A stretch of DNA of 64,000 nt from Candidatus Contendobacter sp. (GTDB lineage Bacteria; Pseudomonadota; Gammaproteobacteria; Competibacterales; Competibacteraceae): the NCBI GenBank assembly GCA_031732755.1, contig JAVMKI010000081.1:228-64227 (forward strand). The letters run 5' to 3'. Position numbers and translations under genes: made by a program. Below are positions 37,737 to 57,781 of the stretch, one piece after another. The notes beneath the pieces were generated by a model that was not told where the DNA came from, made no database searches, and saw only the letters and a list, made by a program, of their open reading frames with translations. The stretch's first letter is position 1. Each line of letters starts with the position of its first letter.

Positions 37737-39206
37737 TCAACTCGTCGATCCCGGCCACCAGGCCCGGCGGGTGAACAGCGCGCCCAGCCCTTGCAGCAGG
37801 TAACGCAGATCCCGGACGGTGCCGCGCTGGCGGGCGTAGAAAGCATCGCTCAGCAACCGCTCCTCGCGGGGGGCGTTCGCTGGCAAGGTTAGCTGCGTGG
37901 GGCCAATCAGCCCGGCCGGAGCCTGATCGCTCACTCGCTCCCATTCCTCCACTCGGTCGTCCGCCTGCTCCGGCGTCAGCGGCTCGACGCCGACCAGCCG
38001 CAGATCGCCGCTCACCACCGCCAACAACCACGGTAAATAGCGCAGCACCGGGATCGTCGTCGCCCATTCCCGCGTCACGAACACCCGCCGTCGGCGATTG
38101 CCGAATTCGTCGAATTCCAACCGGTTGCCGCGTAGATTGACTTCGTGCAGCGGCGCGCTAGCGCCGCTGATCAGCGCGGCGGCCAATGCCAGCGGCCACA
38201 GGGGCAGGGAAAGCGCCAGCGTTAGCGTACCCAACGCCTGGTTGAGCGGTTCGGCCAGGGTTCCACTCAACGTCACCGCGCGCAGATCGGCCAGCAAGAA
38301 AGTCTCGAGCACCGGCAACACCGCGCCGGTATCCACCCGGATCAAACAATTACCCTGGACGATGGCGTTCTGCACTTCCACCAATTCGCCGACGTAGGTC
38401 TCCGGCAACACCACGCTGTCGCGCAGGATGGCATGTCGATCCACGATGACATCATCGGCGATCACGACCTCGCCATGAAATTCGGCGCTGGCCTCGATCC
38501 GGCAATGATTACCCACGCAGGCGATGCCCTGACGCAGGCTGCGCGGCGAAACCCTGGAGCGTAGCCCTACCCGCAGTCCCAGCGCCGCTTCCCGGCCCGG
38601 TACGATCAATCCGGGAAAACGGCCGGCGGCGGCGTCGAGATTGGCCCGATGGTAGGCGACCAGGGAATCCAGCCGGTTCAACGCCCCGGTGAGGAGTTCC
38701 ACCACCGGCCATACCGAGTCGGGCGTGGATGACTCACTACTCCAGCGCAGCGGCTCCAGGCCACCTCGACCGTTGGCGCGATTCAGGCATAAGCTGATCG
38801 GTGCATTGACCGCCCGTCCCTGCACGACTGGACCGCCAATTTCGCCAGCCCGTTGCCGGAATTCGCCCAACGCCGCGCCTCGCAACACATCACCCCGTAA
38901 CGCCAGCACTTCCGCCGAAATCCGGTTCTGGCAACGTTCCACCACTGTATCCGGGTCTTCCTCGCCCTGGGTGAGCACATAATCCAGTCGCATCCCCCAA
39001 CGACTGCCATCGCCGATCACCGCCCGCACCTGATCGGCGAACGGCGAAATGGCGATCACCGCCTCGCGCACCCCGGCGGCGACCAGCGCTTCCAGGGTCA
39101 GTTCCAGCACCGGCTTGCCCACCACTGGCAACAACGCCACGCAGGTCCGTTCGGTCAACGGTTCCAGTTCCCGGCCCAGCCGGTCGGCGAAAATCAGCGC
39201 TTGCAT
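37737..39206 (-). CDS. Sugar-nucleotidyltransferase-like + hexapeptide + degenerate sugar-transferase (Bac_transf) fusion protein
   Basis: N-term LEPLT....LLPVVGKP (NTP_transferase-like), beta-helix-like ADDVIVDRHAILRDSVVL, C-term VSGDLRLVG...AGLIGPTQ...DAFYA...DLRYL. Confidence 0.75.
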   Translation of the reverse strand: MQALIFADRLGRELEPLTERTCVALLPVVGKPVLELTLEALVAAGVREAVIAISPFADQVRAVIGDGSRWGMRLDYVLTQGEEDPDTVVERCQNRISAEVLALRGDVLRGAALGEFRQRAGEIGGPVVQGRAVNAPISLCLNRANGRGGLEPLRWSSESSTPDSVWPVVELLTGALNRLDSLVAYHRANLDAAAGRFPGLIVPGREAALGLRVGLRSRVSPRSLRQGIACVGNHCRIEASAEFHGEVVIADDVIVDRHAILRDSVVLPETYVGELVEVQNAIVQGNCLIRVDTGAVLPVLETFLLADLRAVTLSGTLAEPLNQALGTLTLALSLPLWPLALAAALISGASAPLHEVNLRGNRLEFDEFGNRRRRVFVTREWATTIPVLRYLPWLLAVVSGDLRLVGVEPLTPEQADDRVEEWERVSDQAPAGLIGPTQLTLPANAPREERLLSDAFYARQRGTVRDLRYLLQGLGALFTRRAWWPGSTS

Positions 39207-39209
39207 GGT

Positions 39210-39959
39210 CTAGTAGGCCCCCCGGCCCAGCAGCACCGCCGGCACGGTCTTGAGCAAAAGCAGGATGTCATTGCCGAACGAGGACGATTCGATGTACTGC
39301 ACGTCGAGCTTGACCTGTTCGGGGAAGGGAATGTCGGAACGACCGGAGACCTGCCAGATGCAGGTGATGCCGGGAATGACCTCCAGCCGGCGGCGGTCGG
39401 CCAGCGAATACTGGTTCACTTCGCTGGGCAACGCCGGACGCGGTCCGACCAGCGACATATCGCCCACCAGTACGTTCCACAATTGCGGTAGTTCGTCAAT
39501 CGACGCCTTGCGGATGAAGCGACCGATCTTGGTGATGCGCGGATCGTGCTTCATCTTGAAGATCACGCCCCCGCCCGACTCGTTCTCGGCCAGCAGCGCC
39601 GCCTTGCGCGCCTCGGCGTCCACGTACATCGAGCGAAATTTCCACATGGTGAACAGCGTGCCCCAACGACCGACCCGAACCTGCTTGAAAAAGATCGGCC
39701 CCGGCGATTCCAGCCGGATCAGCAGCATGATCGTCAGAAACAGCGGGGTCAGCAGGATCAGCAAGATGGACGCGGCCACGATGTCGAGCAGGCGCTTGAA
39801 CACGTAGGTGGCGCCCACCACTACCTTCCAGGTCAGCCGTTTGCCCTGAAAGGCCAGCCGCTGCCAGACCCCATCCGGTCGCACCCGACCATAGCGGCGC
39901 AGCAGCGCCTCGCGCAGGTCCGCATCCGGTTCGGCCAACCGATCCGAATAGTCACTCAT
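39210..39959 (-). CDS. Priming phosphoglycosyl transferase (Bac_transf, monotopic PGT)
   Basis: KRLLDI, FTMWKFRSM, DPRITKIGRFIRKASIDELPQLWNVLVGDMSLVGPRP, PGITCIWQVSGR; intact Asp-Glu dyad. Confidence 0.93.
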   Translation of the reverse strand: MSDYSDRLAEPDADLREALLRRYGRVRPDGVWQRLAFQGKRLTWKVVVGATYVFKRLLDIVAASILLILLTPLFLTIMLLIRLESPGPIFFKQVRVGRWGTLFTMWKFRSMYVDAEARKAALLAENESGGGVIFKMKHDPRITKIGRFIRKASIDELPQLWNVLVGDMSLVGPRPALPSEVNQYSLADRRRLEVIPGITCIWQVSGRSDIPFPEQVKLDVQYIESSSFGNDILLLLKTVPAVLLGRGAY

Positions 39960-41223
39960 GAACTTTTGCCTCCTGACGGGCCTGTTTCCAGACCCGATAG
40001 AGAAACAGGGGATTGCCGAGAATATAGCGGCGCCACATCCGGCCCGGCTCCTGCATCAATCGCCAGACCCATTCCAGGCCGATTTCGCGCAGCCACAGCG
40101 GCGCGCGGGGAATCCGCCCGGAGTAGAAATCGAACAAGCCACCCACGCCCATCCGAACCGGCGGTTCCAGCACGGCGTGATGCTCGGTCAGCCACAATTC
40201 CTGGCGAGGCACGCCGAACGCCACCAGCAACACCGCCGCGCCGGAGGCGTTGATGCGAGCGATGATGGCGTCCTCCTCGTCCGGGCCGAAGTAGCCGTGT
40301 TGCGTGCCGACAATCATCAGACCCGGATAGCGTGTCCGCATGTTCTCGGCCACCAAATCGGCGATGCCGGGCCGCGCGCCGAGCAGGAACAGAGAAAAGC
40401 CGTCACGGGCGGCGCGCTCGCACAGCCGGGGAAACAAATCGGTGCCGTTGACGTTGGCCGCCAACCCCAGTCCACGCATCCGGCAACCGATTTTGACGCC
40501 GATGCCGTCCGGCAACACCCGCGCCGCCTGTTGCAGCACAGTCCGATAGCGGACGTGGGTGTAGGCGATGTTGAGGCAGTCCGGATTGACGAAGGCCAGC
40601 AGCGCTTTTTCCCCTTTTCTCATGGGAGAGGAGCCGGGAGCGAGGGCCACGCGACCCGCGATCCAGTCTACCGCTTCGTCCATGGTGGTGTTGACGATGG
40701 GCACGCCGAAGAAATCCAGCAGGGGTGGGATTGGCAATGCCTTGCCACCGCCCAGCAGCGCGGCAATCAGGGAGCGAACGACCATTCCCAAGCTGGCGCG
40801 CACGCTCAGCCGCTCGACAAAGCGCCGGTCCAGCTCGCTTTCCGGATCGTGGGCGATGCCGGTGCGCTGTTGGAGTTGGTAGGGGGAGAACAGGCCTGGC
40901 CGCACGCTAAAGCGAATTTCCGCTTTGGGGGGAACCGCCGCCGCTTCCGTCACCGTCAACGGGCGCGGGCCGGCGATGGCCATGTCGCCGCGCAGAATAT
41001 TGAACAGCGCCGCCAGATTGTGGCCCGGCAACGGTCCGGCGAAGGTCAGCCGGGCGAAGGGGCGGCGGTCGCGGCCCAGAACCGGCGCGTGGTCGAACAG
41101 TCGCCCAGCGCCAAGCAGCGCCAGCAGGGCGCGCGCCAGCCAGCAGGGCGTCAGCAGGACCAACCACGTCAGGGTCAGCGCCAGATCGAAGATTCGCAGC
41201 GCCAGATCGGACGAGCGGTTCAC
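39952..41223 (-). CDS. WecB/TagA/CpsF glycosyltransferase with N-terminal degenerate Bac_transf domain
   Basis: VNP, PDGIG, VNGTDL, FLLGA, GTQHGYF, VAFGVPRQE, GVGGLFDF, RAPLW....GLEW.WRL..EP.R...RY; N-term ILRGDMAIAGPRP. Confidence 0.9.
   Translation of the reverse strand: MNRSSDLALRIFDLALTLTWLVLLTPCWLARALLALLGAGRLFDHAPVLGRDRRPFARLTFAGPLPGHNLAALFNILRGDMAIAGPRPLTVTEAAAVPPKAEIRFSVRPGLFSPYQLQQRTGIAHDPESELDRRFVERLSVRASLGMVVRSLIAALLGGGKALPIPPLLDFFGVPIVNTTMDEAVDWIAGRVALAPGSSPMRKGEKALLAFVNPDCLNIAYTHVRYRTVLQQAARVLPDGIGVKIGCRMRGLGLAANVNGTDLFPRLCERAARDGFSLFLLGARPGIADLVAENMRTRYPGLMIVGTQHGYFGPDEEDAIIARINASGAAVLLVAFGVPRQELWLTEHHAVLEPPVRMGVGGLFDFYSGRIPRAPLWLREIGLEWVWRLMQEPGRMWRRYILGNPLFLYRVWKQARQEAKVHE
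40610..40646 (-). repeat. Short palindromic element, copy C (in frame inside the TagA-like gene)
   Basis: Minus strand ccctcgctcccggctcctctcccatgagaaaagggga, encoding LAPGSSPMRKGE. Confidence 0.5.
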
Positions 41224-45212: not shown

Positions 45213-45255
45213 CCCCTCATCCCCCCAACCTCTCTCCCACCAGGAGAAAGGGAGT
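45213..45255 (+). repeat. Short palindromic element, copy B (intergenic)
   Basis: cccctcatccccccaacctctctcccaccaggagaaagggagt. Confidence 0.55.
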
Positions 45256-46016
45256 CAAACCCACCGCCAGCCCCGCCACCGCCAATTCACGCCCAAGGCC
45301 GCCAGCGCCCCGCGCCAACCGGACTCCGGTTCCAGATTCAGTACGCTCCATTCTCGCCCTTCTCCATCACGCACGCTGACGCGCCCGTCCGGCTGGACAT
45401 CCTCGCGACCACACACGTCCAGGGTTCGCAAGCCGCTGGCCAAACCGCCGCCCAACGCCTTGGCGATGGCTTCCTTGCGGGTCCAGCAGGCGAAAAACGC
45501 GGGTTGAATCCGCTCCACCGGCAACGCCTGGAATGCCGCCCACTCGCGCGGCGTACACACTCTTTCGAGGATCGCCGCGGGGTTCACTTTTCGATCCAGA
45601 CGTTCCAAATCCACGCCCACCTCGCGGCGCGCGACAGCGTACAATGCCCGACCGCTGCTGTGGGAAAGATTGAAATACAGGCCGGTTTCCGCATCCACCC
45701 CCACCAACGTCGGCTTGCCGTGTTCGCCCTGCTCGAAACGCAGCGCCGTCGCCGGACGATTCAGATACGCTCCCAGCAGTTCCCGCAGCAAACCACGCCC
45801 AGCGATAAACCGATTCCGATATTCCAGAAAGCGGAATCGCGCCGCCCGCTCCGGTTCATCCGCCGCCAAGGTTGCCGCCAGATCGGCCAGCGGTTTTGGC
45901 GGACGATCCAGATCCACCAACCACAGATGAATTTCGTCAGCGGCTAGAAAGAGGGGCCGAAGCGCTGAGGGCTCAAACTTTTGCTCCGACCACTCGCCGC
46001 TCGTTGCCACTTCCAC
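45255..46016 (-). CDS. Sfp-type 4'-phosphopantetheinyl transferase
   Basis: E..RAARF, RGLLR.LL, GKP, FNLSHS, GVDLE, FF..WTRKEA..KA.G.G; GTG start 3 nt after the upstream GT4 stop. Confidence 0.92.
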   Translation of the reverse strand: MEVATSGEWSEQKFEPSALRPLFLAADEIHLWLVDLDRPPKPLADLAATLAADEPERAARFRFLEYRNRFIAGRGLLRELLGAYLNRPATALRFEQGEHGKPTLVGVDAETGLYFNLSHSSGRALYAVARREVGVDLERLDRKVNPAAILERVCTPREWAAFQALPVERIQPAFFACWTRKEAIAKALGGGLASGLRTLDVCGREDVQPDGRVSVRDGEGREWSVLNLEPESGWRGALAALGVNWRWRGWRWV

Positions 46017-46018
46017 CC

Positions 46019-47287
46019 TTAACCACCCACCAGCAATCGCCGATACAGCGCCACCGCCGCATCCATCTTGGCGTCCCAGCCGTAGCGCTCCCGTGCCCGC
46101 CGCAAGCCTTCCGCGCCGCGCGCGCGCCATGCATCAGGATGCGCCACCACGTCGCGGAACACGTCCACCAACCCGTTGACCACCGCTTCCCGGCCCGTGT
46201 CGGGCAAGGCCCGGCCCACGCCATCGTCCACGACTTCCGCCGGTCCGCCGAACGCCACCGCCGTGACGGGCCGGGCGCAGGCCATCGCTTCCAGCAGCAC
46301 CGCGCCGCCCGATTCACGCACCGAGGGCAAACAGAACAGGTGCGCCTCGCGCATCCGCGCCGCCACCTCGGTTTGCGGCAAGGCGTCCGTGTTGAACCTG
46401 ACCTGTTCGTTCAGACCGCGCGCTTGAACTTCCGCCCGCAATTCGGCTTCCAGCGGCCCCTCGCCGACCAGGGTCAGCAATACAGGCCATTCGTCTTTCA
46501 CCCGCGCCACCGCTTCCAGCAACATGGAAACGCCCTTGAACGGCACCAGGCGACCCACGAACGCCAGGCGCAACGGTTGCGCGGGTCCCGGCGGTTCCGG
46601 CCAGGGTCCGGGCGAGAACACATCCAGGTCCACGCCATTTTCCAGCATGGGCACACAGCGGGCGCGATGGCGTGGCGCGATGCTCTCCACGGTGGCGCGG
46701 GTCGCGGTCAGGATCGCCGCCGCATGACGGCTGGAACCCGCCATGGCGTCGACCACCCGGCCCAGCTTGCGCACCGGATACACCCAGGCCGCGTCCGCCC
46801 GCATGATGTCGGGAAAATGCATCGGATTGCCCAGGCCGCCGTTCCACGGTCCCAGCACCACGGGCCGACCGAGCTGATGCAGGCGGGTCGCCGCCATGGG
46901 AGAAACCGGTGTCACCGCATGGATAATATCCCAGTCCGCACCCGCCGTCCGCCGCCGCTTCAGTTCCTGCAACGCCGCTGCGTCATACACGTAGAAATCC
47001 GCCGAGGAGACGAGAAACACCGCGTGCTGGCTCTGGCCGAACAGCCGCGCCGCCAGCCGGTACAACGGCCCCGCGAACCATTCGGTATCCACGTAGATCA
47101 CTTTCGATCCTGGCAATGGGGCGCCGGCGGCGGTCAAAGCTTCGCGGTTGCGAACGTGGGTGACCAGCGTCACCGGCAACCGCCGGGCCAGTCGGGAATA
47201 CCAGTGCCAGCCAATCTGCGACACCGAACCCATTCCCGGCCCGCATTGGTACGCCGACAGCAGAAGTCGGGGCCTGTTCTTGTTCAT
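46019..47287 (-). CDS. Glycosyltransferase family 4
   Basis: LLSAYQCGP..GS, ENGVD, FVGRLVPFKG, LPSVRESGGAVLLEAMA. Confidence 0.88.
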   Translation of the reverse strand: MNKNRPRLLLSAYQCGPGMGSVSQIGWHWYSRLARRLPVTLVTHVRNREALTAAGAPLPGSKVIYVDTEWFAGPLYRLAARLFGQSQHAVFLVSSADFYVYDAAALQELKRRRTAGADWDIIHAVTPVSPMAATRLHQLGRPVVLGPWNGGLGNPMHFPDIMRADAAWVYPVRKLGRVVDAMAGSSRHAAAILTATRATVESIAPRHRARCVPMLENGVDLDVFSPGPWPEPPGPAQPLRLAFVGRLVPFKGVSMLLEAVARVKDEWPVLLTLVGEGPLEAELRAEVQARGLNEQVRFNTDALPQTEVAARMREAHLFCLPSVRESGGAVLLEAMACARPVTAVAFGGPAEVVDDGVGRALPDTGREAVVNGLVDVFRDVVAHPDAWRARGAEGLRRARERYGWDAKMDAAVALYRRLLVGG

Positions 47288-47371
47288 CGTTTTGCTCCCG
47301 CCACGGAAATACCCATGCACAATCCAAATGGGTTCCCTACACTACCGCCACGTCACCCACGGAGCGCTCCC

Positions 47372-47776
47372 ATGAGCCATGTCATCGAAATCAAGGTCCG
47401 GGGCTACCATCTCGACTTGTTTCGCCACGTCAACAATGCTCGCTATCTGGAATTTCTGGAGGAAGCTCGCTGGAGTTTCCTGGAAGTCACCAACAACCTG
47501 ACGATTCTGGACCAATACGGCTATGCGTTCGCCGTGGTCAACATCAACATCAATTACCGCCGCGCCGCCTACATGGGCGAAATCCTGCGCGTCGTCACCT
47601 CGATGAAGTCTATCGGCACCCGCCGGTGCGTGATGCATCAGGCCATCACCCTCAAGGATACCGACACTGTGATCGCCGACGCCGACGTCACCTTCGTCAT
47701 CGTGGATACCCAGGCCGAAAAAGCGGTGGAGCTCACCGGCGAATTGCGGGCCAGCATGGAGCGCATGGCCGGTTAG
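47372..47776 (+). CDS. Hotdog-fold acyl-thioesterase (YbgC/YbaW family)
   Basis: IKVRGYHLD.F.HVNNARYLEFLEEARW, VVNININYR; GGAG RBS; only the last 134 codons of the 45872..47776 ORF are real. Confidence 0.88.
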   Translation: MSHVIEIKVRGYHLDLFRHVNNARYLEFLEEARWSFLEVTNNLTILDQYGYAFAVVNININYRRAAYMGEILRVVTSMKSIGTRRCVMHQAITLKDTDTVIADADVTFVIVDTQAEKAVELTGELRASMERMAG

Positions 47777-48771
47777 TTGCCTGAGTCTGGGGGAAGCGCG
47801 GGCGATGACCGGGTTTCCCAGCGCCAGGCGTGAGCGATGATCGTCGCCAGATCGGCGTAACGCGGTTTCCAACCCAGCTCGGCCCGCGCCCGTTGGGCGT
47901 CCGCCACCAACCGTTCCGGATCGCCGGGCCGCCGCTTCCCGTACTGCACCGGGATGTCCTGGCCAGTCACGGAGCGGGCGGTCTCGATCACTTCCCGCAC
48001 CGAAAAACCGTTGCCGTTGCCCAGGTTGTACGCCGCGCTGTCGCCGCCGGCCCACAGCCGTTGCAGCGCCAGCAGATGGACTTCGCATAGATCGGCGACG
48101 TGGATATAGTCACGGATGCAGGTGCCGTCCGGCGTGTCGTAGTCGGTTCCGAACACCGTGATGTGCGGCCGATGCCCAGTGGCGGCTTGCAGCACCAGCG
48201 GAATCAAGTGGGTTTCCGGTTGATGGCGTTCGCCCAGTTCGCCGTCCGGGTCGGCGCCGGCGGCGTTGAAATAGCGCAGGCTGACCGATTTCAGCCCATA
48301 CGCGACGTCATAGTCTTGCAATATCTGCTCGACCATCCACTTGCCCCGCCCATAGGGATTGATGGGATTTTTCGGATGGTCCTCGTCAATCGGGATGCGA
48401 ACCGGCTCGCCGAAAATCGCCGCAGTGGAGGAAAAGATGAAGTGGCGCACCCGATGCGCCACCATCGCGTCCAGCAGATACTGGGTTTTAACCACGTTGT
48501 TGAGATAGTACTTGGCTGGCTCGCGTACCGATTCGCCGACTTGGATGTGAGACGCAAAGTGCATCACGCCATCGAAACGTGTGGTCGCCAGCAACTCGTC
48601 CAGCAAATCCCGCTCGCCCAGATCGCCCAGCACGAAGCGGCCCTCCACCACCGCATCCCGGTGACCCGCGGACAGATTATCCAGCACCGTGATCTCGAAT
48701 CCGTGCCGGCCCAGCAGCTTGACCATGTGCGAGCCAATATAGCCCGCTCCGCCAACGACGAGTACATGCAT
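47773..48771 (-). CDS. galE: UDP-glucose 4-epimerase
   Basis: GGAGYIGSH, HFAS.I.VGES, FSSTAA..G, YGRGK, LRYFNAAGA, DGTCIRDYIH, YNLGNG.G.SV. Confidence 0.95.
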   Translation of the reverse strand: MHVLVVGGAGYIGSHMVKLLGRHGFEITVLDNLSAGHRDAVVEGRFVLGDLGERDLLDELLATTRFDGVMHFASHIQVGESVREPAKYYLNNVVKTQYLLDAMVAHRVRHFIFSSTAAIFGEPVRIPIDEDHPKNPINPYGRGKWMVEQILQDYDVAYGLKSVSLRYFNAAGADPDGELGERHQPETHLIPLVLQAATGHRPHITVFGTDYDTPDGTCIRDYIHVADLCEVHLLALQRLWAGGDSAAYNLGNGNGFSVREVIETARSVTGQDIPVQYGKRRPGDPERLVADAQRARAELGWKPRYADLATIIAHAWRWETRSSPALPPDSGN

Positions 48772-48878
48772 CGAATCGTTCCTGGTAATTGATTGAATCG
48801 GCTTGCGCACTACCACACTGGAATGATGCCTGCTAATTTAATGAGCATAGACCGAACGCCGCCCAACCGCATCTCGAC

Positions 48879-50480
48879 ATGACTGCTTTCGCCAGCGACG
48901 CCAAACAACAATTCAAGAACCGGCTGTCCCAGAACGCGGTCGTGCAACTGGCCGCCAAGCTGCTGTACATGCTCAGCCGGGTTGGGTTACCGCCGATCAT
49001 CCTCAGCTACGTCAGCCTGGAGGAGTACGGCATTTGGGCCACCTGCTTCATCGTCATCAGCTACCTGGGCATGAGCACCTTCGGCATCGCCAACGTCTAC
49101 ATCCGCTATACCGCCGAATACCACGCCCGCCACGATACCGAAGCGATCAACCGCCTGCTGACCACCGGCCTCGCCGTCACCATTCCGCTCTGCCTTGGCC
49201 TGCAGACGCTGCTGGGCTTGGGGATGCCGCTGTTGCTGGACGCCTTCAAAGTGGCTCCGCACCTGCGCGAAACCGCCGCCATCCTGATTTTCGCCACCGC
49301 CGCCGCGATGATGCTCGACCTGAGTTTCGGCGCGTTCAGCCATGTGCTGGGCGGCTTGCAGCTCATGGTGCGCCAGACCGGCATCTGGGTGGCCAGCTTC
49401 CTGCTGGAGACCGCGCTGATTGTTGGCTTGCTGCTGGCCGGGCTGGGGGTGTACGCGCTGCTGTGGGCTTTCGTCATTCGTTACTTGCTGGCTACCTGGC
49501 TCAGTGCCCGCGCCTGCTTCCAGGTTCTGCCTGGCCTGACCCTCGGCCCGCGCCATTTCGACCGGAGCTTGCTGAAGCTGTTTTACCGCTTCGGCGGCGT
49601 GGTGCAGATTTCCGGGCTGCTGAGCATGGTGCTCTATTCCATCGAAAAGGTGATCGCCGGCGCATTCATCGGGGTGCGCGCCACCGGCCTGTTCGACCTC
49701 GGCGAAAAGCTGCCAGTCATGTCCAGTCAGACCACCTCGGCGCTGAACGCGGTGTTCCTGCCAGCGGTGACCCATCTGTACAGCCTGGGTCAGATGGAAG
49801 AACTGGGCAAGCTGTACCTGAAAGGCGCGCGCTACATCAGTCTATTGACCGGACTGATCATGGGTTTTCTAGCCGGTTTCGCCGCGCCGATCATGACCGC
49901 CTGGCTGGGACCGAGCGAAGAATTCCGCATCACCGCCTTCATCATGGCCTGGTTCACCCTGCCGTTTCACACCCACGTCACCACCGGCCCCTGCACCGCG
50001 CTGCATTACGGGGCCAATCAGCCCGCCCGCACCTTGTTCTATCCGCTGAGCCAGACGGCGCTGGTCGCAATTCTAGTCGGCGGCGCGTTCCTAGCCTTCG
50101 GCGCCACCATTCCCGCCATCACCTATGGCGTTGCCGCCGCCATGACCCTGAGCGGCTGGGCCTACATGGCCTGGTCCAACCGCTTCCTGCAGGTCGAATC
50201 CGGCGTTTTCATCAGGCGGGTGATCATCCCTGGCCTGATGCCCTACGGCTTCGGGCTGGCGCTGGCGGGACTGACCGCGCCCTGGTTCGCCGCCGCCGGC
50301 AGCGACCGCTGGAGCCTGCTGGGACTATTGGCCGTCTGCGGCTTGCTTTATAGCGTGGTGACGACGGCTTTTCTGTACCGGGTGATGTGCGACTGGGGCG
50401 AACGGGAATATCTGCGTCGGCAACTGGCGCACACCCTGAGCGGATTCATCGGCAAGGCGATTGGGCGGAAAACCGGATGA
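48879..50480 (+). CDS. wzx: Wzx-type oligosaccharide flippase
   Basis: ~12-14 TM; LSLEEYG.W-like motif, [10 protein letters not shown]....GLFDL; position inside the EPS locus. Confidence 0.8.
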
Positions 50481-51088
50481 AAAGCTTATTGCGACGCCTC
50501 CTGCGCTATCTGGCCTTCGAACGCGGTCAGGCGGTGGGCTGGTACAAGCGCTTCTGCAATCCTGGCGGCGAGGAATGGGCCGCCTGGCTCAAGCGCCGGG
50601 GGATATTGCATGCCATCGGCGAGCACTGTTCGATTCAGACCAACGTCACCCTCACCGACCCGGTCTATACCCGGCTGGGCAACAACGTGCGGCTGACCGG
50701 CTGCACCCTGTTCGGTCACGACGGCTCGGTCAACATGCTGAATCGGGCCTATGGCCTGAAACTGGATCGGGTCGGCAAGATCGACATTCGCGACAACGTG
50801 TTCGTCGGCCATGGCGCGATCCTGCTGCCGGGCGTCACCGTCGGCCCCAATGCCATCGTCGCTGCCGGGTCGGTGGTCAATCGCGACGTGCCGCCCAACA
50901 GCATCGTCGCCGGGGTGCCGGCGCGGGTGGTCGGCGAACTGGATCGACTGGTCACCCGGCTGCGGGACGAGACCGAGCGGCTGCCGTGGGCGGCGCTGCT
51001 GGCCCAGCGCAGCGGTTCCTTCGATCCGGTGTTGCAGGTGGAGCTGGATCGCATCCGCATCCAGCACTTCTTCGGCGACTCCGACTGA
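50477..51088 (+). CDS. Hexapeptide-repeat (left-handed beta-helix) acyltransferase
   Basis: [48 protein letters not shown]; ATG overlaps the wzx stop. Confidence 0.88.
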
Positions 51089-51111
51089 TCCCGCCATTCG
51101 GGATTTTCATC

Positions 51112-52947
51112 ATGACCCGTTCATGTCGGCCTGACCTCGGCGGCAGCGTCGTTCTGGGCTTGTTGTTGTGGGGCAGCCTGGCGGCGACGGTCATGGCGCA
51201 ATCCCCCGCCGGCAACAGCGCCAATGCCCGCTCGCCGCTCGGCATCAACATCGCCGCGCTCAATTACTGGAGCACGGAATGGCCACTGCTGGACGCGATG
51301 AAGCAATCCGGCGACTGGTTGACCCAATGCGATCGCCGCACGTCCAGCAACTGCAGCCTGCCAGCGCCGGCCAGCGAATGGGATACCCGCGAGCAGTCCC
51401 GGCTGGACCTCGACCCGGCAGGCTGGGTGCGCTCCCTGCCGACGGCCGACGACGTTCTGGTTCACTACCGTAGCGTCGCCACCATGCTGTTCGGCGGCAA
51501 TGGTGGGGCCTATCCGTCCGGTCAGTACACGGTGTCGTATGACGGCGAGGGTACGCTCGAATATGGACTCGATGCGGTCAAGGACGCCGCGCGTTCTCAG
51601 CCGGGCCGCGATGTCGTGAACGTCCGGGCCAGCAACGCCGGAATGCTGTTACGGATCACCGCCACCGATCCTCGCCACGTCGGCGCTTATCTGCGCCATA
51701 TCCGGGTCATCCCGCCCGGCGGTGTTTGCGACGATGACCCGTTCGTCTATGCCGAGAATGCCGAAGCCTGTCAGGCTCGGAACGGTCGCTATACTCCGTT
51801 TACCGCCCTGGACGGGGTCGAACGCTTCCGCTTCCACCCGCTGTTCCTGCGGAACCTGCGCCTTTATCGAGCCATTCGTTTCATGGATTTGTTGCGGACC
51901 AATACCAATGAAGGGGTGGAATGGGCCGAGCGGCCCCGGCTGACCGATGCCCGCTGGAGCAGTCGCAACGGCGCGCCGGTGGAACTGGCGCTGGAGTTGG
52001 CAACGACGCTGCACGCCGACCCCTGGCTCAACGTTCCGGTGCAGGCCAATGCCGATTACGTGGCGCAATTCGCCCGGCTGGCGCGGGCGCGCCTGCCTTC
52101 CGATTCGCGCGTTTACCTTGAATACGCCAACGAAGTTTGGAACGACCAGTTCAGCGCCGGAGCCTGGCTGCAACAACAGGCCGTGCAACGCTGGCCCGAC
52201 CGGCCTGGCGGCCCTTCGCCTTTCACCCGTCGCATCAACGCCTACGGCAAACGCGCGGCCGAAATCTGCGCGCTGTGGAAACGGGAATGGGGCAACGACC
52301 GGGATCGGGTGGTTTGCGTCCTGGGCGGCATGAGCGCCAATCCGTGGGTGGCCGAACAAGCCCTGCAATGTCCGCTGTGGGCGGCGGAAAATGGCGGCCA
52401 TGCCTGCGCCGAAGCGATGGATGCGCTGGCTATCGCGCCCTATTTCGGCGGTCATCTGGGCACATCCCGCTGGGCCAACAGCGTCGCCGCCTGGACCAGC
52501 CGGCCCGACGGCGGTCTAGCCCTACTGTTTCAGGAACTCACCTCGGGCGAGATTCTAGGTGACCCCAAGGCGCTGGCCCTGCCGGCGGTGTTCCGCCAAA
52601 TCGCCGCCCATCGCGTGATTGCCGACCGCTACCGGCTGGCGCTGCTCGGCTATGAAGGCGGCCAGCACCTGGTCGGCGTTGGGCCGGCCCAGAATGACGA
52701 GCGGCTGGAAAAGCTGTTCGTGGCCGCCAATCGCGCCGACTCGATGGGCGCGCTGTACGACGCTTATCTCGACGGCTGGCGGCAACAGGGTGGCCAGTTG
52801 TTCATGCCCTTCAACAGCGTGAGCCGCTATACCCGTTATGGCAGTTGGGGCGCCAAGGAATATCAGACCCAAAGCGCCGCGCCCAAACACCAAGCACTGC
52901 TACGTTTCATCGCCACTCATCCCTGTTGGTGGCCGGGTTGTCGCTGA
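51112..52947 (+). CDS. Secreted putative glycoside hydrolase (cellulose-binding-protein-like family)
   Basis: Signal peptide ending AATVMA-QS; SPLGIN, IRFMD, DPWLNVP, YLEYANEVWN, AIAPYFG, YEGGQH, YGSWG. Catalytic assignment is inferred. Confidence 0.65.
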   Translation: MTRSCRPDLGGSVVLGLLLWGSLAATVMAQSPAGNSANARSPLGINIAALNYWSTEWPLLDAMKQSGDWLTQCDRRTSSNCSLPAPASEWDTREQSRLDLDPAGWVRSLPTADDVLVHYRSVATMLFGGNGGAYPSGQYTVSYDGEGTLEYGLDAVKDAARSQPGRDVVNVRASNAGMLLRITATDPRHVGAYLRHIRVIPPGGVCDDDPFVYAENAEACQARNGRYTPFTALDGVERFRFHPLFLRNLRLYRAIRFMDLLRTNTNEGVEWAERPRLTDARWSSRNGAPVELALELATTLHADPWLNVPVQANADYVAQFARLARARLPSDSRVYLEYANEVWNDQFSAGAWLQQQAVQRWPDRPGGPSPFTRRINAYGKRAAEICALWKREWGNDRDRVVCVLGGMSANPWVAEQALQCPLWAAENGGHACAEAMDALAIAPYFGGHLGTSRWANSVAAWTSRPDGGLALLFQELTSGEILGDPKALALPAVFRQIAAHRVIADRYRLALLGYEGGQHLVGVGPAQNDERLEKLFVAANRADSMGALYDAYLDGWRQQGGQLFMPFNSVSRYTRYGSWGAKEYQTQSAAPKHQALLRFIATHPCWWPGCR

Positions 52948-52961
52948 AGGCCGACCGAATC

Positions 52962-55565
52962 TCAACCATAGCTGGCCCGATAGAGCTTCAGGAACAGATA
53001 GCCGCTGACCGTGACGAACAACGCCAGGGCGACCGCCATGGAAAATACGCCAGATGATCCGTAAGAGGTCAGCACCGATTTCATGGGGATGACCATCTCA
53101 TGCAATACAAACATTGGGAACGCCAGCATCCCGGTCACGGCGGCGAACTGCAGCGCGAATCGGCCAGTACGGCTCATATGCTCGTACCGCCGCAGCAAGG
53201 ATTCCATCCAGGCCAATAGCAGCATAACTAGCCCGGTATAAACCAGCCAGCGCCAGATATTGTTGGCCGATACCGGCCAGTTGAACCAGTTGCCCGCGTC
53301 CGGTTGATGAAGAGACACGATAATGCCGGCCAGCAGAACAAATAAACCAGCCAGATTCAACACATTCAGGGATTCGCCTTTGGAAAGCCACCGCTGGATG
53401 CTGATGCCAATCGCCATTCCCATCAAGCTCCCCGAGAGCATCTGAAAATAGGCATACTTGGCGGTAAGCAACAGTTTGGCCAATTCGACCAATCCCTCCG
53501 CCTTATCATCGGCAATCTGCTTCATCAAAAGGTAATCAATGGCATAGGAACACATGGACAACACCAGCGCCAGTAGAACCGGATACTGGCTTTTGGTCAA
53601 CAGCCAAAAGATGGGATAAAGAGTTGCTGTCACCAGCAGATAATAGGTGAGCACCGAATAGAAAGAGTTGGTGAAATCCGTGAAGGTCAGCCCTGGATTA
53701 TTCCGCCATTTGGCCCAGAATATGGCCGCGCCCAACAACAGGATACCGGTCAGCAATAACAGAAAGGTTTTTTTCAGAATTCCCTTCAGTCGCGTTTCAT
53801 CGTTGAAAAAAAGTGGAAACAGGGCGTAACCCGCGCCGACCCCATAGATTACGGCGAAGCCCGGCGTACCCATGGCAAAAAATGGGGCGAAAGCGGAGGT
53901 GATCCAGGCTGAAGTACCCAATAAACGCTCAAAAATTCCTTGATGCCAATGCGCGATGATGACCGACATGACCATCAATCCACGCACCACGTTGATCGCC
54001 ATGCTGTTGCGCATACCAGGACCGCGCACCCGGTGCTTCTGTTGATCGACGCCTTCGGCGGGGTGCATGCGCTGAGCGATTTCGCGAATACTCAACCCTT
54101 GCAGTAACCCTCTGGAAATATCCGCTGGCACACCCCGGCGTTCCATTTCAATCAGCGCTGTCAGCGCCGACAGGGAATCACCGCCCATGTCGTAGAAATT
54201 GTCCTCCACGCCGATATGCTCGGTTTCCAGCACACTTTGCCAGATCGACAAGATCGTCCGCTCATCGTCCGACAGGTCCGCAATGATCACCGGCTGGGTC
54301 ACGCTGGTGGTTTCAGGGCCTGCCGCCTTGATCTGTTCCTCATACCGTTGCGCCAGCGCCTTGCGCCGCACCTTGTTCGTGTCAGTGACGGGAAAAGCGT
54401 CCAGAGTCAGCCGTTTAATCACCCGCTTATTGTTAATCCCGAAGGCCAGCAGCATCTCGCTGGCGGCGTTCATCAACGCCGTCTCATCAATACTCTGATG
54501 ACGGAGCGTGGTAATCAGCACCGCATGGCCAGTCAGCGAGTCGTTGACCGCTGCCACGGCGAGACCTTCGCTGAGACTCAGCCGGTCGCGCAAATCGCGT
54601 TCCAGCGCATCCGGCGACAGTTTGACGCCACCGCAGTTGATCAGATCGTCCGCCCGACCTTCATAATAAAGATAACCCTGGTCCAGACGACCCAGATCAC
54701 TGGTCCGCAGCCAACCCTGATCATCCACGTTGGTGACGTATTCACCGTTCTTCAGTAATTGTCGGGCCACATGTGGACCCCGGATACAAATTCGGCCTTC
54801 GTCAGAGATCCGAACTTCCGTCTGGCCATACACCCGACCCACCGATTCCAGTAGGTCGCCATGGGTCTGGTCAACTCTCAGGAAAGTCGTCCGCGATGCC
54901 TCGGTCAATCCATAATGTTGCGCAATGATGGCATTGGGAAAAAGAGACTTCAGTTGTTCCTTCTCACCCCGGCTCATGTATTGACTGCCGATCTCGATCC
55001 ATTTCAGGCTCGCGGTTTCAGGGCCAAACAGACGTTTATTTTCCAAAAGAATACGCCAGAGGCTGGGCACCGCCGATACGGCGTTAATTTCACCGGATTG
55101 CAATAGCTCTCTGATTTCCAGCGGATCAAAACCATGGGGCGGTAAAAAGCTGGCGCCACCCGCCGCCGCCACGGCGCGAAACCGCCCGAGACCAAAGGAG
55201 AAATTCGCCGGCACCCCGACATATTCCCGGATGGTGCTGTCAACCTCCATCACCTGATTGAGTCGCTCCGTGACATCGGAGAGCGCCCGGTGAGTCAGTA
55301 AAACTCCCTTGGGCTCACTCTCGGTACCTGAGGTGAAAGCGATTTGGGCCAACGCGTCGTCACGGGGGAAAACATAAATCTCCTTGAACCAGCCCTTTGC
55401 ATCGTCCGGCTCCACCACACGGGTCACGCCGGTCTGCTGGATTCTGCTATCATCGGCATGGCGCAATAGAACCACCATCTGTTGGTTCCGATAACATTTG
55501 AAAAGCGTTTGCACATAGGAAATGGAATTCCTGGACACCACACCGACGATCTGTTGATGGCTCAT
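52962..55565 (-). CDS. Adenylation domain - carrier protein - AT3-like membrane acyltransferase fusion
   Basis: ANL motifs FTSGTESEPKG, HYGLTE, RTSDLG, GRADDLIN.GG.K, PVTDTNK; carrier motif NFYDMGGDSL (Ser codon 54174-54176); C-terminal ~10-TM domain starting INVVRGLMVMSVIIAHW. Start at 55565 chosen from RBS spacing (55571 and 55595 are alternatives). Confidence 0.82.
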   Translation of the reverse strand: MSHQQIVGVVSRNSISYVQTLFKCYRNQQMVVLLRHADDSRIQQTGVTRVVEPDDAKGWFKEIYVFPRDDALAQIAFTSGTESEPKGVLLTHRALSDVTERLNQVMEVDSTIREYVGVPANFSFGLGRFRAVAAAGGASFLPPHGFDPLEIRELLQSGEINAVSAVPSLWRILLENKRLFGPETASLKWIEIGSQYMSRGEKEQLKSLFPNAIIAQHYGLTEASRTTFLRVDQTHGDLLESVGRVYGQTEVRISDEGRICIRGPHVARQLLKNGEYVTNVDDQGWLRTSDLGRLDQGYLYYEGRADDLINCGGVKLSPDALERDLRDRLSLSEGLAVAAVNDSLTGHAVLITTLRHQSIDETALMNAASEMLLAFGINNKRVIKRLTLDAFPVTDTNKVRRKALAQRYEEQIKAAGPETTSVTQPVIIADLSDDERTILSIWQSVLETEHIGVEDNFYDMGGDSLSALTALIEMERRGVPADISRGLLQGLSIREIAQRMHPAEGVDQQKHRVRGPGMRNSMAINVVRGLMVMSVIIAHWHQGIFERLLGTSAWITSAFAPFFAMGTPGFAVIYGVGAGYALFPLFFNDETRLKGILKKTFLLLLTGILLLGAAIFWAKWRNNPGLTFTDFTNSFYSVLTYYLLVTATLYPIFWLLTKSQYPVLLALVLSMCSYAIDYLLMKQIADDKAEGLVELAKLLLTAKYAYFQMLSGSLMGMAIGISIQRWLSKGESLNVLNLAGLFVLLAGIIVSLHQPDAGNWFNWPVSANNIWRWLVYTGLVMLLLAWMESLLRRYEHMSRTGRFALQFAAVTGMLAFPMFVLHEMVIPMKSVLTSYGSSGVFSMAVALALFVTVSGYLFLKLYRASYG

Positions 55566-55653
55566 GAGCATTTCCCTGATTAACCGGTATTGCAAAGGTG
55601 TCTTAAATAAAGGTGTGGCTTCGCGTTAAACCCGCCTGAGAACCCTGGCAATT

Positions 55654-56505
55654 ATGGCATACATTAAACCTGGCTTCTTCGGGCGGATGTCTCGCCGGCT
55701 CCGACCCAAGGGGAGAATATGGACGTGGGCCATGCCGCTGACGTTGCTGGGCGTAGCGGTGGGGGTGGGCGCTATTTATCTCCGTCTGCCTGTGACGGAT
55801 GCCTGGGAGCCAGCTATCGCCGCCTTCGAAGCACAAGACCGCCAACAGCCACCCCTTCCTGGCCAGGTGGTGTTCGTCGGTGGCTCCAGCATCCGGTTCT
55901 GGGACCATCTGGCTGCCGACATGGCGCCGATTCCGGTGCTAAACCGGGGTTTCGGCGGCGCGCGGTTGCGCGATGTGCCGCACTATGTCGACCGGGTGAT
56001 TCTCCCCTATCGACCCCAAGCGGTGGTGCTTTATGCCGGCGAAAACGATCTGGGTGCCTGGTGGGCTTGGCCGGGCCTGATCGTGGACCGGTTTCAGCAC
56101 TTGGTCGAACGCCTGCGCCAAAGCGATCCAAAACTGCCGATCCTGATGCTGGCCATCAAGCCTTCACCCTACTTTGCCGCCCGGCTGGAGCGACAGCGGG
56201 AAGCCAACCGGCGACTGCGCGCCTATTGTGAAGCCACGCCGGGACTGTTCTTCATCGACGTAGCCAGCCCCCTGCTCGATGCCCAGGGGCGTCCCCGGCC
56301 CGAACTGTATCGGGACGGGCTGCACCTCAATGCCGCTGGCTACGCGTTGTGGCGGGAGCGGGTCCGACCGGTTTTGCTGACCGTGCTGGGCCTCAGCTCA
56401 AAATCCGCCGGAAGCGATACAACGGCGCCGGCGCTTCGGCCACCGGCGCTGTCTCCAGCGTCTGCTCCCGGCCAGAATGCAGATAGCCCTCCGCCCAGCC
56501 GGTGA
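55654..56505 (+). CDS. SGNH/GDSL-family protein with N-terminal membrane anchor
   Basis: Block I FVGGSSIRFW, block II NRGFGG, block III YAGENDL, block V DGLH; TM MPLTLLGVAVGVGAIYL. Confidence 0.85.
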   Translation: MAYIKPGFFGRMSRRLRPKGRIWTWAMPLTLLGVAVGVGAIYLRLPVTDAWEPAIAAFEAQDRQQPPLPGQVVFVGGSSIRFWDHLAADMAPIPVLNRGFGGARLRDVPHYVDRVILPYRPQAVVLYAGENDLGAWWAWPGLIVDRFQHLVERLRQSDPKLPILMLAIKPSPYFAARLERQREANRRLRAYCEATPGLFFIDVASPLLDAQGRPRPELYRDGLHLNAAGYALWRERVRPVLLTVLGLSSKSAGSDTTAPALRPPALSPASAPGQNADSPPPSR

Positions 56506-57781
56506 CCAGGAACAGTAACGCCACGGTTTGGTTGCCCATGTACACCGTGGCCACGGAAATCAGGTAACAGACATAGACGCCGGCCAGGGTGAAGGCCAGC
56601 GAACTGCCCAGCGGTTGCGGATTAGGTTGACTCATGGCGTGGCGGATCAGCCGCACGATCATCCCCAGCAGAATCGTCAGGAACAGGGCCAGGGCGATTT
56701 GGCCGTGCATCAGAAACAGCAGCAGGTAGTAATTATCGATGGAAGGCTGGCCCGGCACCTTGGGCCATTTGGTCAGGCCCCAACCCCAGGTAGCCTGTTC
56801 CTTGGCGATATCCATGTAATTGGTGATCAGTTCCAGGCGATAGGCGGCGGTTTCCTGGTTTTCGGTCTTGGCGTTTTGCCGGCCCACTCCGGCCCATTGC
56901 AGGAAACCGATGAAGATCGGCAGGCAGATGCCGAACAGGAAGACCAGCAGGATGCCGACCCCAATCCAGCGATTGCGCATCCGCCCGATGAACACCACCA
57001 CCGCCGCGATGACGCCGGCCACCCATGGCCCCTTGACCAACGTGATGAGCGCGCCGCCCAGCATTCCCAGGGTATACATTTGCGCCTCGGTCAGCTTGGG
57101 CCAGGGCAGCCACTTGAACCAGGGGTGGCGCGGCTCGGTCCAGGCACCGCTCCATTCCAGCCAGCGTTGGATTCGGTAACCGGTCACCATCATGATCCCG
57201 GCCAGGATGGCGTGACCGTAGGGACCGGCGGTGCGCGCCAGACCCCAACGGAAGGTGATGATCCAGCCCAAGCCCTGCCCCGGAAAGAAGGGACCGAAGA
57301 TTTTCTGCCAGGGGTTGACCCCGAAGCGCGATTCGTACAGACAGATGATGGCGACGATGAACAGACAAACCACGATTTTCTTGGCGAAGGCGACTCGCCC
57401 ACCCAGTGGTTCCACCAGGCTCTTGGCCAGCACGTAGGGGATGACCACCGAGGTCAGCATGGCGAACATCAGGTTTTGAGCATCGTTGTAGCCCGATGCT
57501 CGATATTCCGAATAGGCGATTACCCCAGCGAGGCCGTACACCACCAAGTCGAAGGGGGTAAATCGGTAGCCGGGCGACCCGCGCACGAGAAAGACGATGA
57601 ATACCGCCAACACCGCTGCCTGGTTGGCGGTCGGATCGGGCAAACCCGGCGCGACCCAACGGTAATAATCCGGGAACAGCAGCAACGCGGGCAGATAGAC
57701 GTTGAAAAAGGCGAACTGGGGCGAGCGAACCAGCGCGAAGTAAACCGCGAACAGGGCTGGAATCAGGGCGAGAATCGCCAT
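56393..57781 (-). CDS. wzy: Wzy-like polymerase / O-antigen ligase family membrane protein
   Basis: ~12 TM; R..GPYGH.ILAG, ETAAYR.EL, WGWG, SIDN.YL in the large periplasmic loop; lies in a wzx/wza/wzc locus. Confidence 0.75.
   Translation of the reverse strand: MAILALIPALFAVYFALVRSPQFAFFNVYLPALLLFPDYYRWVAPGLPDPTANQAAVLAVFIVFLVRGSPGYRFTPFDLVVYGLAGVIAYSEYRASGYNDAQNLMFAMLTSVVIPYVLAKSLVEPLGGRVAFAKKIVVCLFIVAIICLYESRFGVNPWQKIFGPFFPGQGLGWIITFRWGLARTAGPYGHAILAGIMMVTGYRIQRWLEWSGAWTEPRHPWFKWLPWPKLTEAQMYTLGMLGGALITLVKGPWVAGVIAAVVVFIGRMRNRWIGVGILLVFLFGICLPIFIGFLQWAGVGRQNAKTENQETAAYRLELITNYMDIAKEQATWGWGLTKWPKVPGQPSIDNYYLLLFLMHGQIALALFLTILLGMIVRLIRHAMSQPNPQPLGSSLAFTLAGVYVCYLISVATVYMGNQTVALLFLVTGWAEGYLHSGREQTLETAPVAEAPAPLYRFRRILS

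Follow-up and report, generated by a model that had tools for sequence, protein, structure and literature searches.

How do bacteria place non-sugar groups on the polysaccharides that they export? Such substituents govern how charged and how viscous bacterial polysaccharides are, how phages and the immune system recognize them and how flocs form, and to our knowledge the transferases for many substituents other than acetate have not been identified. The question takes a particular form in a 64,000-nucleotide stretch of Candidatus Contendobacter sp. DNA (contig JAVMKI010000081.1 of assembly GCA_031732755.1, positions 228 to 64,227; henceforth the window), where a gene in a Wzx/Wzy exopolysaccharide (EPS) locus encodes an adenylation (A) domain, a peptidyl carrier protein (PCP) domain and a membrane domain resembling AT3 acyltransferases in a single chain. 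An earlier note on this DNA had combined this fusion gene, a divergent SGNH gene, a gene for an Sfp-type phosphopantetheinyl transferase (PPTase) and one for a hotdog thioesterase (TE) into a complete accessory set, acting as one dedicated activate-load-edit-translocate-transfer pathway for a non-sugar EPS substituent. The core of this proposal survives, namely an intact A-PCP-AT3 fusion in an EPS locus, a carrier that requires a PPTase, and a divergent SGNH gene, while the PPTase and TE do not hold up as dedicated members. We lean, with confidence somewhat above even, toward reading the unit as a two-gene acylation cassette in a Wzx/Wzy locus, a variant on AT3 and Dlt-like acylation that is predicted from genes alone. 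The two genes of this putative cassette are:

52962-55565, minus strand: A-PCP-AT3 fusion, 867 aa (AMP-binding 3.3e-28; PP-binding 6.6e-08)
55654-56505, plus strand: membrane-anchored SGNH/GDSL protein (PF13472 3.3e-22)

The fusion protein and its family

The A domain of the fusion spans approximately residues 1-430, the carrier approximately residues 447-508, and an AT3-like domain with ten transmembrane helices (TMHs) approximately residues 520-867. The core motifs of ANL adenylating enzymes (A3 T78-G87, A5 Y218-E222, A7 D290, A8 R304-D307 and A10 K398) are invariant in 16 diverse homologues of 43-82% identity, as is serine S464 in the GGDSL motif of the carrier, which matches PP-binding (PF00550) with 33.1 bits against a cut-off of 20.8. 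Acyl-CoA ligase models score highest on the A domain (138 bits), ahead of amino-acid adenylation (95 bits) and of DltA (65.8 bits, against a cut-off of 476), and among solved enzymes it comes closest to the CoA ligases for oxalate, 4-coumarate, malonate and fatty acids. The acid that it would activate is probably a small, non-amino carboxylic acid. The exosortase-A-associated acyl-CoA ligase family TIGR03098 was rejected as an assignment for the A domain (98.6 bits against a cut-off of 592). The ANL N-terminal subdomain is incomplete, with the Pfam match beginning at position 152 of the 384 in the profile and alignments to solved enzymes at chain residues 146-176. This short N terminus (window positions 54270-55565 encode the N-terminal part of the fusion) is conserved across phyla, and a full domain is kept in relatives of 983 aa.

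The membrane domain carries R528 and H539, 11 residues apart in TMH1, as an R-X10-H motif that is invariant in the same 16 homologues and at least 90% conserved (columns R23 and H34) in an alignment of 72 C-terminal domains. An R/K-X10-H motif in TMH1 is the hallmark of AT3 proteins (PMC7448272; PMC9833829). Of these 72 relatives, 19 match PF01757 (best value 6.7e-9), and three further relatives exceed its cut-off of 31 bits (P0167, 41.8; P0133, 40.4; P0162, 36.6). An AlphaFold2 (AF2) model of the domain, with a predicted local distance difference test score (pLDDT) of 94.9 and a predicted template modeling score (pTM) of 0.93, has about ten long TMHs, and the chain stops after the last of these, as in AT3-only proteins. 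Foldseek searches found a sole meaningful match in the PDB, human HGSNAT, the solved protein that represents the TmAT superfamily (8vlg_B; probability 0.87, but TM-score 0.42 and E 0.3), and a best match in BFVD to an unnamed viral protein of 637 aa (probability 0.99), both weak as support; a profile search of the PDB using the membrane-domain alignment gave zero matches. Because of the R-X10-H motif, the PF01757 matches among relatives, the AF2 model and the weak HGSNAT fold match, we conclude that the membrane domain is probably a divergent AT3 of predicted 'AT3-only' topology.

The fusion belongs to a widespread family. More than 1,287 homologues occur in a large protein collection, where the named ones are called AMP-binding protein or acyl-CoA synthetase, and 334 species-representative genomes hold a relative. 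Among these genomes are those of Gammaproteobacteria, Betaproteobacteria, Alphaproteobacteria, cyanobacteria, Chlorobiaceae, Planctomycetota, a spirochaete and Deltaproteobacteria, with organisms as varied as glycogen accumulators of wastewater, methylotrophs, cyanobacteria, green sulfur bacteria and marine members of the Roseobacter group. Searched with a profile of its AT3-like domain, the family yielded just 376 clusters among 1.84 billion representatives, mostly C-terminal to A-PCP. When nine length variants were scanned with Pfam, A-PCP was present in eight, the other being a standalone AT3 of 369 aa. Besides the 983-aa form with a full-length A domain, the variants comprise two or three proteins of C-A-PCP-AT3 architecture (~1,416 aa; P0150 and P0165), which bear a condensation (C) domain of nonribosomal peptide synthetases, and tandem-carrier proteins with two, three or four PCPs ahead of the membrane domain (P0133, P0146 and P0136; 952-1,140 aa). 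If the carrier did not feed the membrane domain, its multiplication right in front of TMH1 would be difficult to account for. At an Emcibacteraceae locus, the fusion is followed immediately downstream by another AT3-like gene, separate from it but belonging to the same clade (L035:12835-13905).

Polysaccharide genes dominate the surroundings of the fusion. De novo clustering of nearby open reading frames (ORFs) at 80 fusion loci from many phyla recovered families 2 and 4 glycosyltransferases at 41 (GT2) and 33 (GT4) loci, WecG/TagA at 19, hexapeptide acetyltransferases at 19, dTDP-sugar genes at 18, the exosortase EpsH at 16, Wzy at 15 and Wzx at 10. Glycosyltransferases also ranked first in a Pfam scan of 132 fusion-flanking genes (three per side at 22 diverse loci). 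In Nitrincola iocasae and Methylophaga thalassica (L081 and L082), the fusion resides in PEP-CTERM/exosortase EPS loci, at or a few genes from EpsH/EpsI and a TPR protein.

These architectures and neighborhoods bear on the possibility that A-PCP does not hand its acyl group to the membrane domain: the membrane part might, for example, use acetyl-CoA and anchor A-PCP for cytoplasmic acylation, or the target might be a lipid or a protein instead of EPS. Such a division of labor would fit with the use of acyl-CoA by characterised AT3s, with another single-chain PCP-A-PlsC lipid acyltransferase encoded in the same genome, and with the exosortase genes beside the fusion in Nitrincola and Methylophaga. 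However, this AT3 clade almost never occurs without A-PCP, its variants multiply the carrier just upstream of TMH1, the R-X10-H motif directly follows a short PCP linker, and the neighbors are overwhelmingly glycosyltransferases, Wzx and Wzy. We consider an uncoupling of the two parts improbable.

The SGNH gene and the AT3 swap

Between the SGNH gene and the divergently transcribed fusion lies a spacer of 88 bp, in which a promoter scan gave no sigma-70-like site. Translation of the SGNH gene reveals an N-terminal hydrophobic anchor and the catalytic blocks GGSS, FGG, GENDL and DGLH. On its other side the gene converges with wzy such that the 3' ends overlap by 113 nt (56393-56505), and an overlap of ~110 nt occurs likewise at locus L090. 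An SGNH gene lies beside the fusion at three of the 80 loci (L001-L003), all of them from Competibacteraceae with fusions that are 82% identical. A PF13472 search of 20 fusion-bearing whole genomes, the matches being vetted by ORF length and several chance coordinate overlaps on other contigs being discarded, also placed an adjoining SGNH gene only in the close relatives.

The same slot can be occupied by another kind of AT3. At three loci (L090, L091 and L098), what lies opposite the SGNH orthologue (64-80% identical) is not the fusion but a standalone AT3 of 362-374 aa, with the same Wzy-SGNH flank and, a few genes beyond, the hexapeptide acetyltransferase (Hexa) and Wzx genes in common. The standalone AT3 of L098 matches PF01757, those of L090 and L091 match PF07786 (HGSNAT_cat) with 24.7-24.9 bits, above the cut-off, and an hhalign comparison of the fusion AT3 profile with the standalone AT3 of L090 returned a probability of 99.75 (E 3e-27, 21% identity). 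The fusion has a GC content of 54.6% (65.6% at third codon positions, GC3), compared to 63-67% (GC3 mostly 75-85%) for its neighbors. This low GC content points to the horizontal replacement of a standalone AT3 by the fusion, an exchange through which a carrier thioester made by the protein itself would take the place of acyl-CoA as donor.

It could be that the fusion acts alone, in the mode of AT3-only proteins, and that the SGNH protein is an O-acyl esterase trimming or editing the substituent, or the leftover partner of the standalone AT3 that was replaced. Any SGNH gene is missing from most fusion loci, the AT3 domain stops after TMH10 like that of AT3-only proteins, the nearest solved homologues of the SGNH protein are a sialate O-acetylesterase and a platelet-activating factor (PAF) acetylhydrolase, and relatives elsewhere have no AT3 link. 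On the other hand, the divergent SGNH-AT3 layout has been kept on either side of the AT3 swap, in six genomes, and in OafA, OafB and OatA the final transfer falls to an SGNH domain. We regard this reading as unlikely, yet worth keeping in view; the SGNH protein itself may be a transferase or an esterase.

The PPTase, the thioesterase and the rest of the locus

The genes named in the earlier note were confirmed by ORF listing and profile searches and are, as it had described, interleaved with galE, wzx and wzy. In addition to the fusion and SGNH genes, this part of the window contains the following, of which the hexapeptide acetyltransferase and the clan GH-A-like protein had not been emphasised in the earlier note:

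45255-46016, minus strand: Sfp/HetI-type PPTase (PF01648 6.3e-19; PF22624, Sfp-type N-terminal domain, 1.4e-08)
47372-47776, plus strand: YbgC/FadM hotdog thioesterase, TE (PF13279 2.9e-19; TIGR00051 1.1e-20, above cut-off)
47773-48816, minus strand: galE, GalE-type UDP-hexose 4-epimerase (Epimerase 3e-55)
48879-50480, plus strand: wzx, Wzx-type flippase (Polysacc_synt_3 3.9e-11)
50477-51088, plus strand: hexapeptide-repeat acetyltransferase, cytoplasmic and of acyl-CoA type (Hexapep 1.7e-11; NeuD/PglB/VioB-like 1.4e-16)
51112-52947, plus strand: secreted clan GH-A-like protein, 611 aa (AF2 model and Foldseek)
56393-57781, minus strand: wzy, Wzy-type polymerase, O-antigen ligase-like (Wzy_C 6.2e-11)

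Is the PPTase a dedicated component of the acylation pathway? Its best NCBIfam model is HetI (4.6e-49, under the cut-off of that model), and it is the sole PF01648 match in its genome, which is 98% complete. The same genome holds five other PP-binding matches, including one AcpP-sized ORF and one within a 951-aa PCP-AMP-binding-PlsC protein. Exactly one Sfp-sized PPTase is present in 13 of 15 congeners and a split match in one more (frames of ~150-450 aa), and the fusion was found in none of the 15. The genus appears to be without AcpS, so that this PPTase must serve the fatty-acid ACP too. Since no other PPTase was detected in the genome, it probably also primes the carrier of the fusion. As the sole PF01648 gene, and one shared with fusion-less congeners, it does not have the profile of a dedicated pathway PPTase (EntD-like, or an Sfp serving a single cluster).

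Gene order tells the same story for the PPTase and TE. In four congeners the immediate neighbors of the PPTase gene are the TPMT and MFS genes, which in the window border the EPS locus, and GalE-TE-PPT-TPMT-MFS forms a single block at loci L086 and L100. Eleven fusion-less congeners have a TE orthologue (73-93% identity), which in 10 cases lies within ~0.5-2 kb of the PPTase. The left arm NTP_PGT-PGT-PGT_TagA-GT2a-GT2b-GT4a-PPT-GT4b-TE of the window is identical in congener G022, which has a standalone AT3 and no fusion. At L002, by contrast, the fusion is present, yet GT4b and GT4a are contiguous, without PPTase, TE or galE between them.

Co-occurrence was tested by searching the 80 fusion loci with the window proteins (phmmer) and then with iterated hidden Markov models, which added none. 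A PPTase lies beside the fusion at five of the 80 loci, all of them distant (four Chlorobiaceae and one deltaproteobacterium), and a TE at none. Neither ACPS nor 4HBT nor SGNH is among the 25 commonest families of the 132 flanking genes at 22 loci, and within 10 kb of the fusion in Nitrincola iocasae, Methylophaga thalassica and Cyanobacterium sp. DS4 there is no PPTase, TE or SGNH gene amid the surrounding polysaccharide genes. Where an Sfp-type PPTase does abut the fusion, in the Chlorobiaceae and the deltaproteobacterium, four of the five genomes encode one or two PPTases in addition; these abutting PPTases are independent evidence that the carrier of the fusion is used.

Could the four genes nonetheless form one dedicated pathway? 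They all lie within 11 kb, the PPTase gene begins 3 nt past the stop codon of a GT4 gene and hence would be co-transcribed with the EPS genes, no other PPTase is at hand to prime the fusion, and in Chlorobiaceae and a deltaproteobacterium the fusion has a dedicated PPTase at its side. Set against this are the absence of TE from all 80 fusion loci and of three of the families from the commonest neighbors, the same single PPTase in 13 of 15 congeners that have no fusion, the adjacency of TE and PPTase in at least 10 of these, the conserved backbones of L086, L100 and G022, and the fusion-bearing L002 that has dispensed with PPTase, TE and galE between its GT4 genes. We judge a four-gene pathway to be very improbable. 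The neighborhood comparison that the earlier note had proposed thus went largely against it: the four genes are not found together elsewhere (at the 80 loci, TE 0, SGNH 3 and PPTase 5), so that the set is not a conserved module, and the PPTase would serve other carriers too.

Gene content and order mark the PPTase as the housekeeping enzyme of the genus, ancestral in position and not recruited for the fusion, and the clustering of PPTase and TE near the fusion is explained by ancestral synteny and not by co-selection. With its best family being YbgC/FadM and no fusion locus sharing it, the TE does not resemble a carrier-editing enzyme (EntH-like or a type II TE); nothing detected ties it to the fusion, and it probably stands outside the acyl pathway. 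A PPTase and a TE inside a cluster may thus be inherited scenery.

The larger Wzx/Wzy locus of this Competibacter-type gammaproteobacterium, an inhabitant of activated sludge, opens in the ORF listing at ~37.7 kb with genes for phosphoglycosyl transferases and glycosyltransferases and closes with Wzc/Wza at 60.8-63.9 kb. Three successive phosphoglycosyl-transferase-like genes at 37737-41223 encode an NTP-transferase joined to a phosphoglycosyl transferase (PGT), a PGT, and a PGT joined to a TagA-like domain; the same trio is kept in congener G022 (L099). The start of the hexapeptide acetyltransferase gene overlaps the stop codon of wzx by 4 nt, and the two genes are kept side by side at L001, L002, L090, L091 and L098. 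As to expression, no RNA runs containing the window sequence were found; the matches are DNA metagenomes from activated sludge and wastewater.

The protein encoded at 51112-52947 has no sequence match in Pfam, NCBIfam or the PDB. Its AF2 model (pLDDT 93.6) gave Foldseek matches only to clan GH-A of the glycoside hydrolases (GH51, GH5, GH53, GH10 and GH79; E 5e-6 to 1e-3), and N340-E341 and Y514-E515, pairs of catalytic type, are invariant. Some relatives are named 'cellulose-binding protein' and many have a PA14 domain. The model suggests that this is probably an undescribed glycoside hydrolase family of EPS loci, an EPS-processing glycanase outside the acyl pathway.

Predicted mechanism and comparison with known systems

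How might the two-gene cassette work? The A domain would activate a carboxylic acid, probably small and non-amino, and load it as a thioester onto the phosphopantetheine arm of its own carrier at Ser464. A tether of ~15-20 residues would hold the carrier at TMH1, which bears the R-X10-H donor motif, and the acyl-phosphopantetheine arm could enter the AT3 pore where the phosphopantetheine arm of acyl-CoA normally sits. The acyl group would then arrive at the periplasmic face and pass to the polysaccharide, either directly, in the manner of AT3-only proteins, or in this lineage via the SGNH protein. Published simulations, among them PMC12423673, locate the phosphopantetheine moiety of acyl-CoA inside the AT3 pore. 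For acetyl-CoA, simulations put the arm there next to the TMH1 histidine and a periplasmic tyrosine. The architecture of the fusion argues for a carrier-bound donor for its AT3 domain.

Several observations weigh against this picture. The C-terminal ~350 aa of the fusion have no Pfam match of their own, even at E=10, and the fold matches of the membrane domain are weak (TM-score 0.42 to HGSNAT). The A domain is short of ~100 N-terminal residues compared to solved ANL enzymes. AT3 reviews favor acyl-CoA over ACP as the donor for characterised members. Some fusion-bearing genomes (Nitrincola, a related Methylophaga and a Phycisphaerales genome) contain only an AcpS-sized PPTase. The absence of SGNH from most fusion loci makes the SGNH step lineage-specific at best, and the closest solved relatives of the SGNH protein (sialate O-acetylesterase and PAF-AH Ib) are esterases. 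A general role of this SGNH family as AT3 partner was rejected, the homologues in Luteimonas and in another distant organism being found in unrelated contexts.

Beyond the window, A-PCP-AT3 proteins, including the C-A-PCP-AT3 and tandem-PCP forms, may constitute a widespread class of 'thiotemplated transmembrane acyltransferases' that produce an acyl or aminoacyl donor themselves, bound to a carrier, and pass it through the AT3 pore onto exported polysaccharides, a generalization on which we are evenly divided. If true, these would be the first AT3 enzymes with a carrier protein, and not acyl-CoA, as physiological donor, and the Competibacter locus would be a natural swap, with a CoA-fed and a carrier-fed version beside the same SGNH partner. 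The acyl-CoA pool is regarded as the only source on which AT3s draw; with an A domain and a carrier built in, the cell would no longer depend on it, and a carrier-fed AT3 would explain how unusual acids get onto exported polymers. A single characterised member would annotate many loci, given the 334 species genomes that hold the family. Our literature search, incomplete in its coverage, found no paper on the A-PCP-AT3 architecture beyond general papers on AT3s, and neither a 2022 AT3 review nor a 2025 paper on TmAT mentions it; the architecture is probably novel.

The closest relatives of the membrane domain in known systems are the AT3-SGNH enzymes OafA and OafB of Salmonella and OatA of Staphylococcus, and the AT3-only proteins Oac and WbaK, which share with it R-X10-H in TMH1 and, as far as its model shows, a ten-helix AT3 domain. 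An extracytoplasmic SGNH partner and acylation of a surface glycan after export are common to OafA, OafB and OatA and, by prediction, to the cassette in the window. The known enzymes, however, take acetyl or acyl groups from CoA and have the SGNH domain fused C-terminally via an eleventh helix, whereas here the donor-making A-PCP is N-terminal, the SGNH protein is separate and anchored, and most family members are without SGNH. HGSNAT (TmAT) is linked to the fusion by the fold match of the membrane domain and by the PF07786 match of the standalone protein that fills the same slot in relatives; HGSNAT is a eukaryotic lysosomal protein that uses acetyl-CoA and has no carrier or A domain.

Carrier-dependent acyl transfer to an envelope molecule is also a feature of AlmEFG, which places glycine on Vibrio cholerae lipid A, of Aas and of PCP-A-PlsC fusions. 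Their acyltransferases are of the PlsC/LPLAT type and act on lipids at the cytoplasmic face, with no movement of the acyl group across the membrane. The genome of the window encodes a second activate-load-transfer fusion of this kind, the 951-aa Aas-like protein with PP-binding, AMP-binding and PlsC-type domains on contig C22 (L092:2592-5447, minus strand), which presumably acts on membrane lipids. The TE of the window has the hotdog fold in common with EntH/YbdB and type II TEs, but belongs to the YbgC/FadM acyl-CoA thioesterase family and does not co-occur with the fusion.

In logic, the cassette comes nearest to the DltABCD system, which D-alanylates teichoic acids by passing the residue from an adenylation enzyme to a phosphopantetheinyl carrier, a polytopic membrane acyltransferase, an SGNH-like extracytoplasmic protein and finally the cell-surface polymer. 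The fusion and the SGNH protein share this logic, as far as it can be read from genes alone. They are not members of the Dlt family, however, as the DltA score of the A domain lies far below the cut-off of that model and the membrane domain is AT3-like and not MBOAT. Dlt delivers D-alanine by means of four separate proteins with an MBOAT (DltB) in the membrane, whereas the fusion unites an A domain resembling acyl-CoA ligases, a carrier and a predicted AT3 in a single chain.

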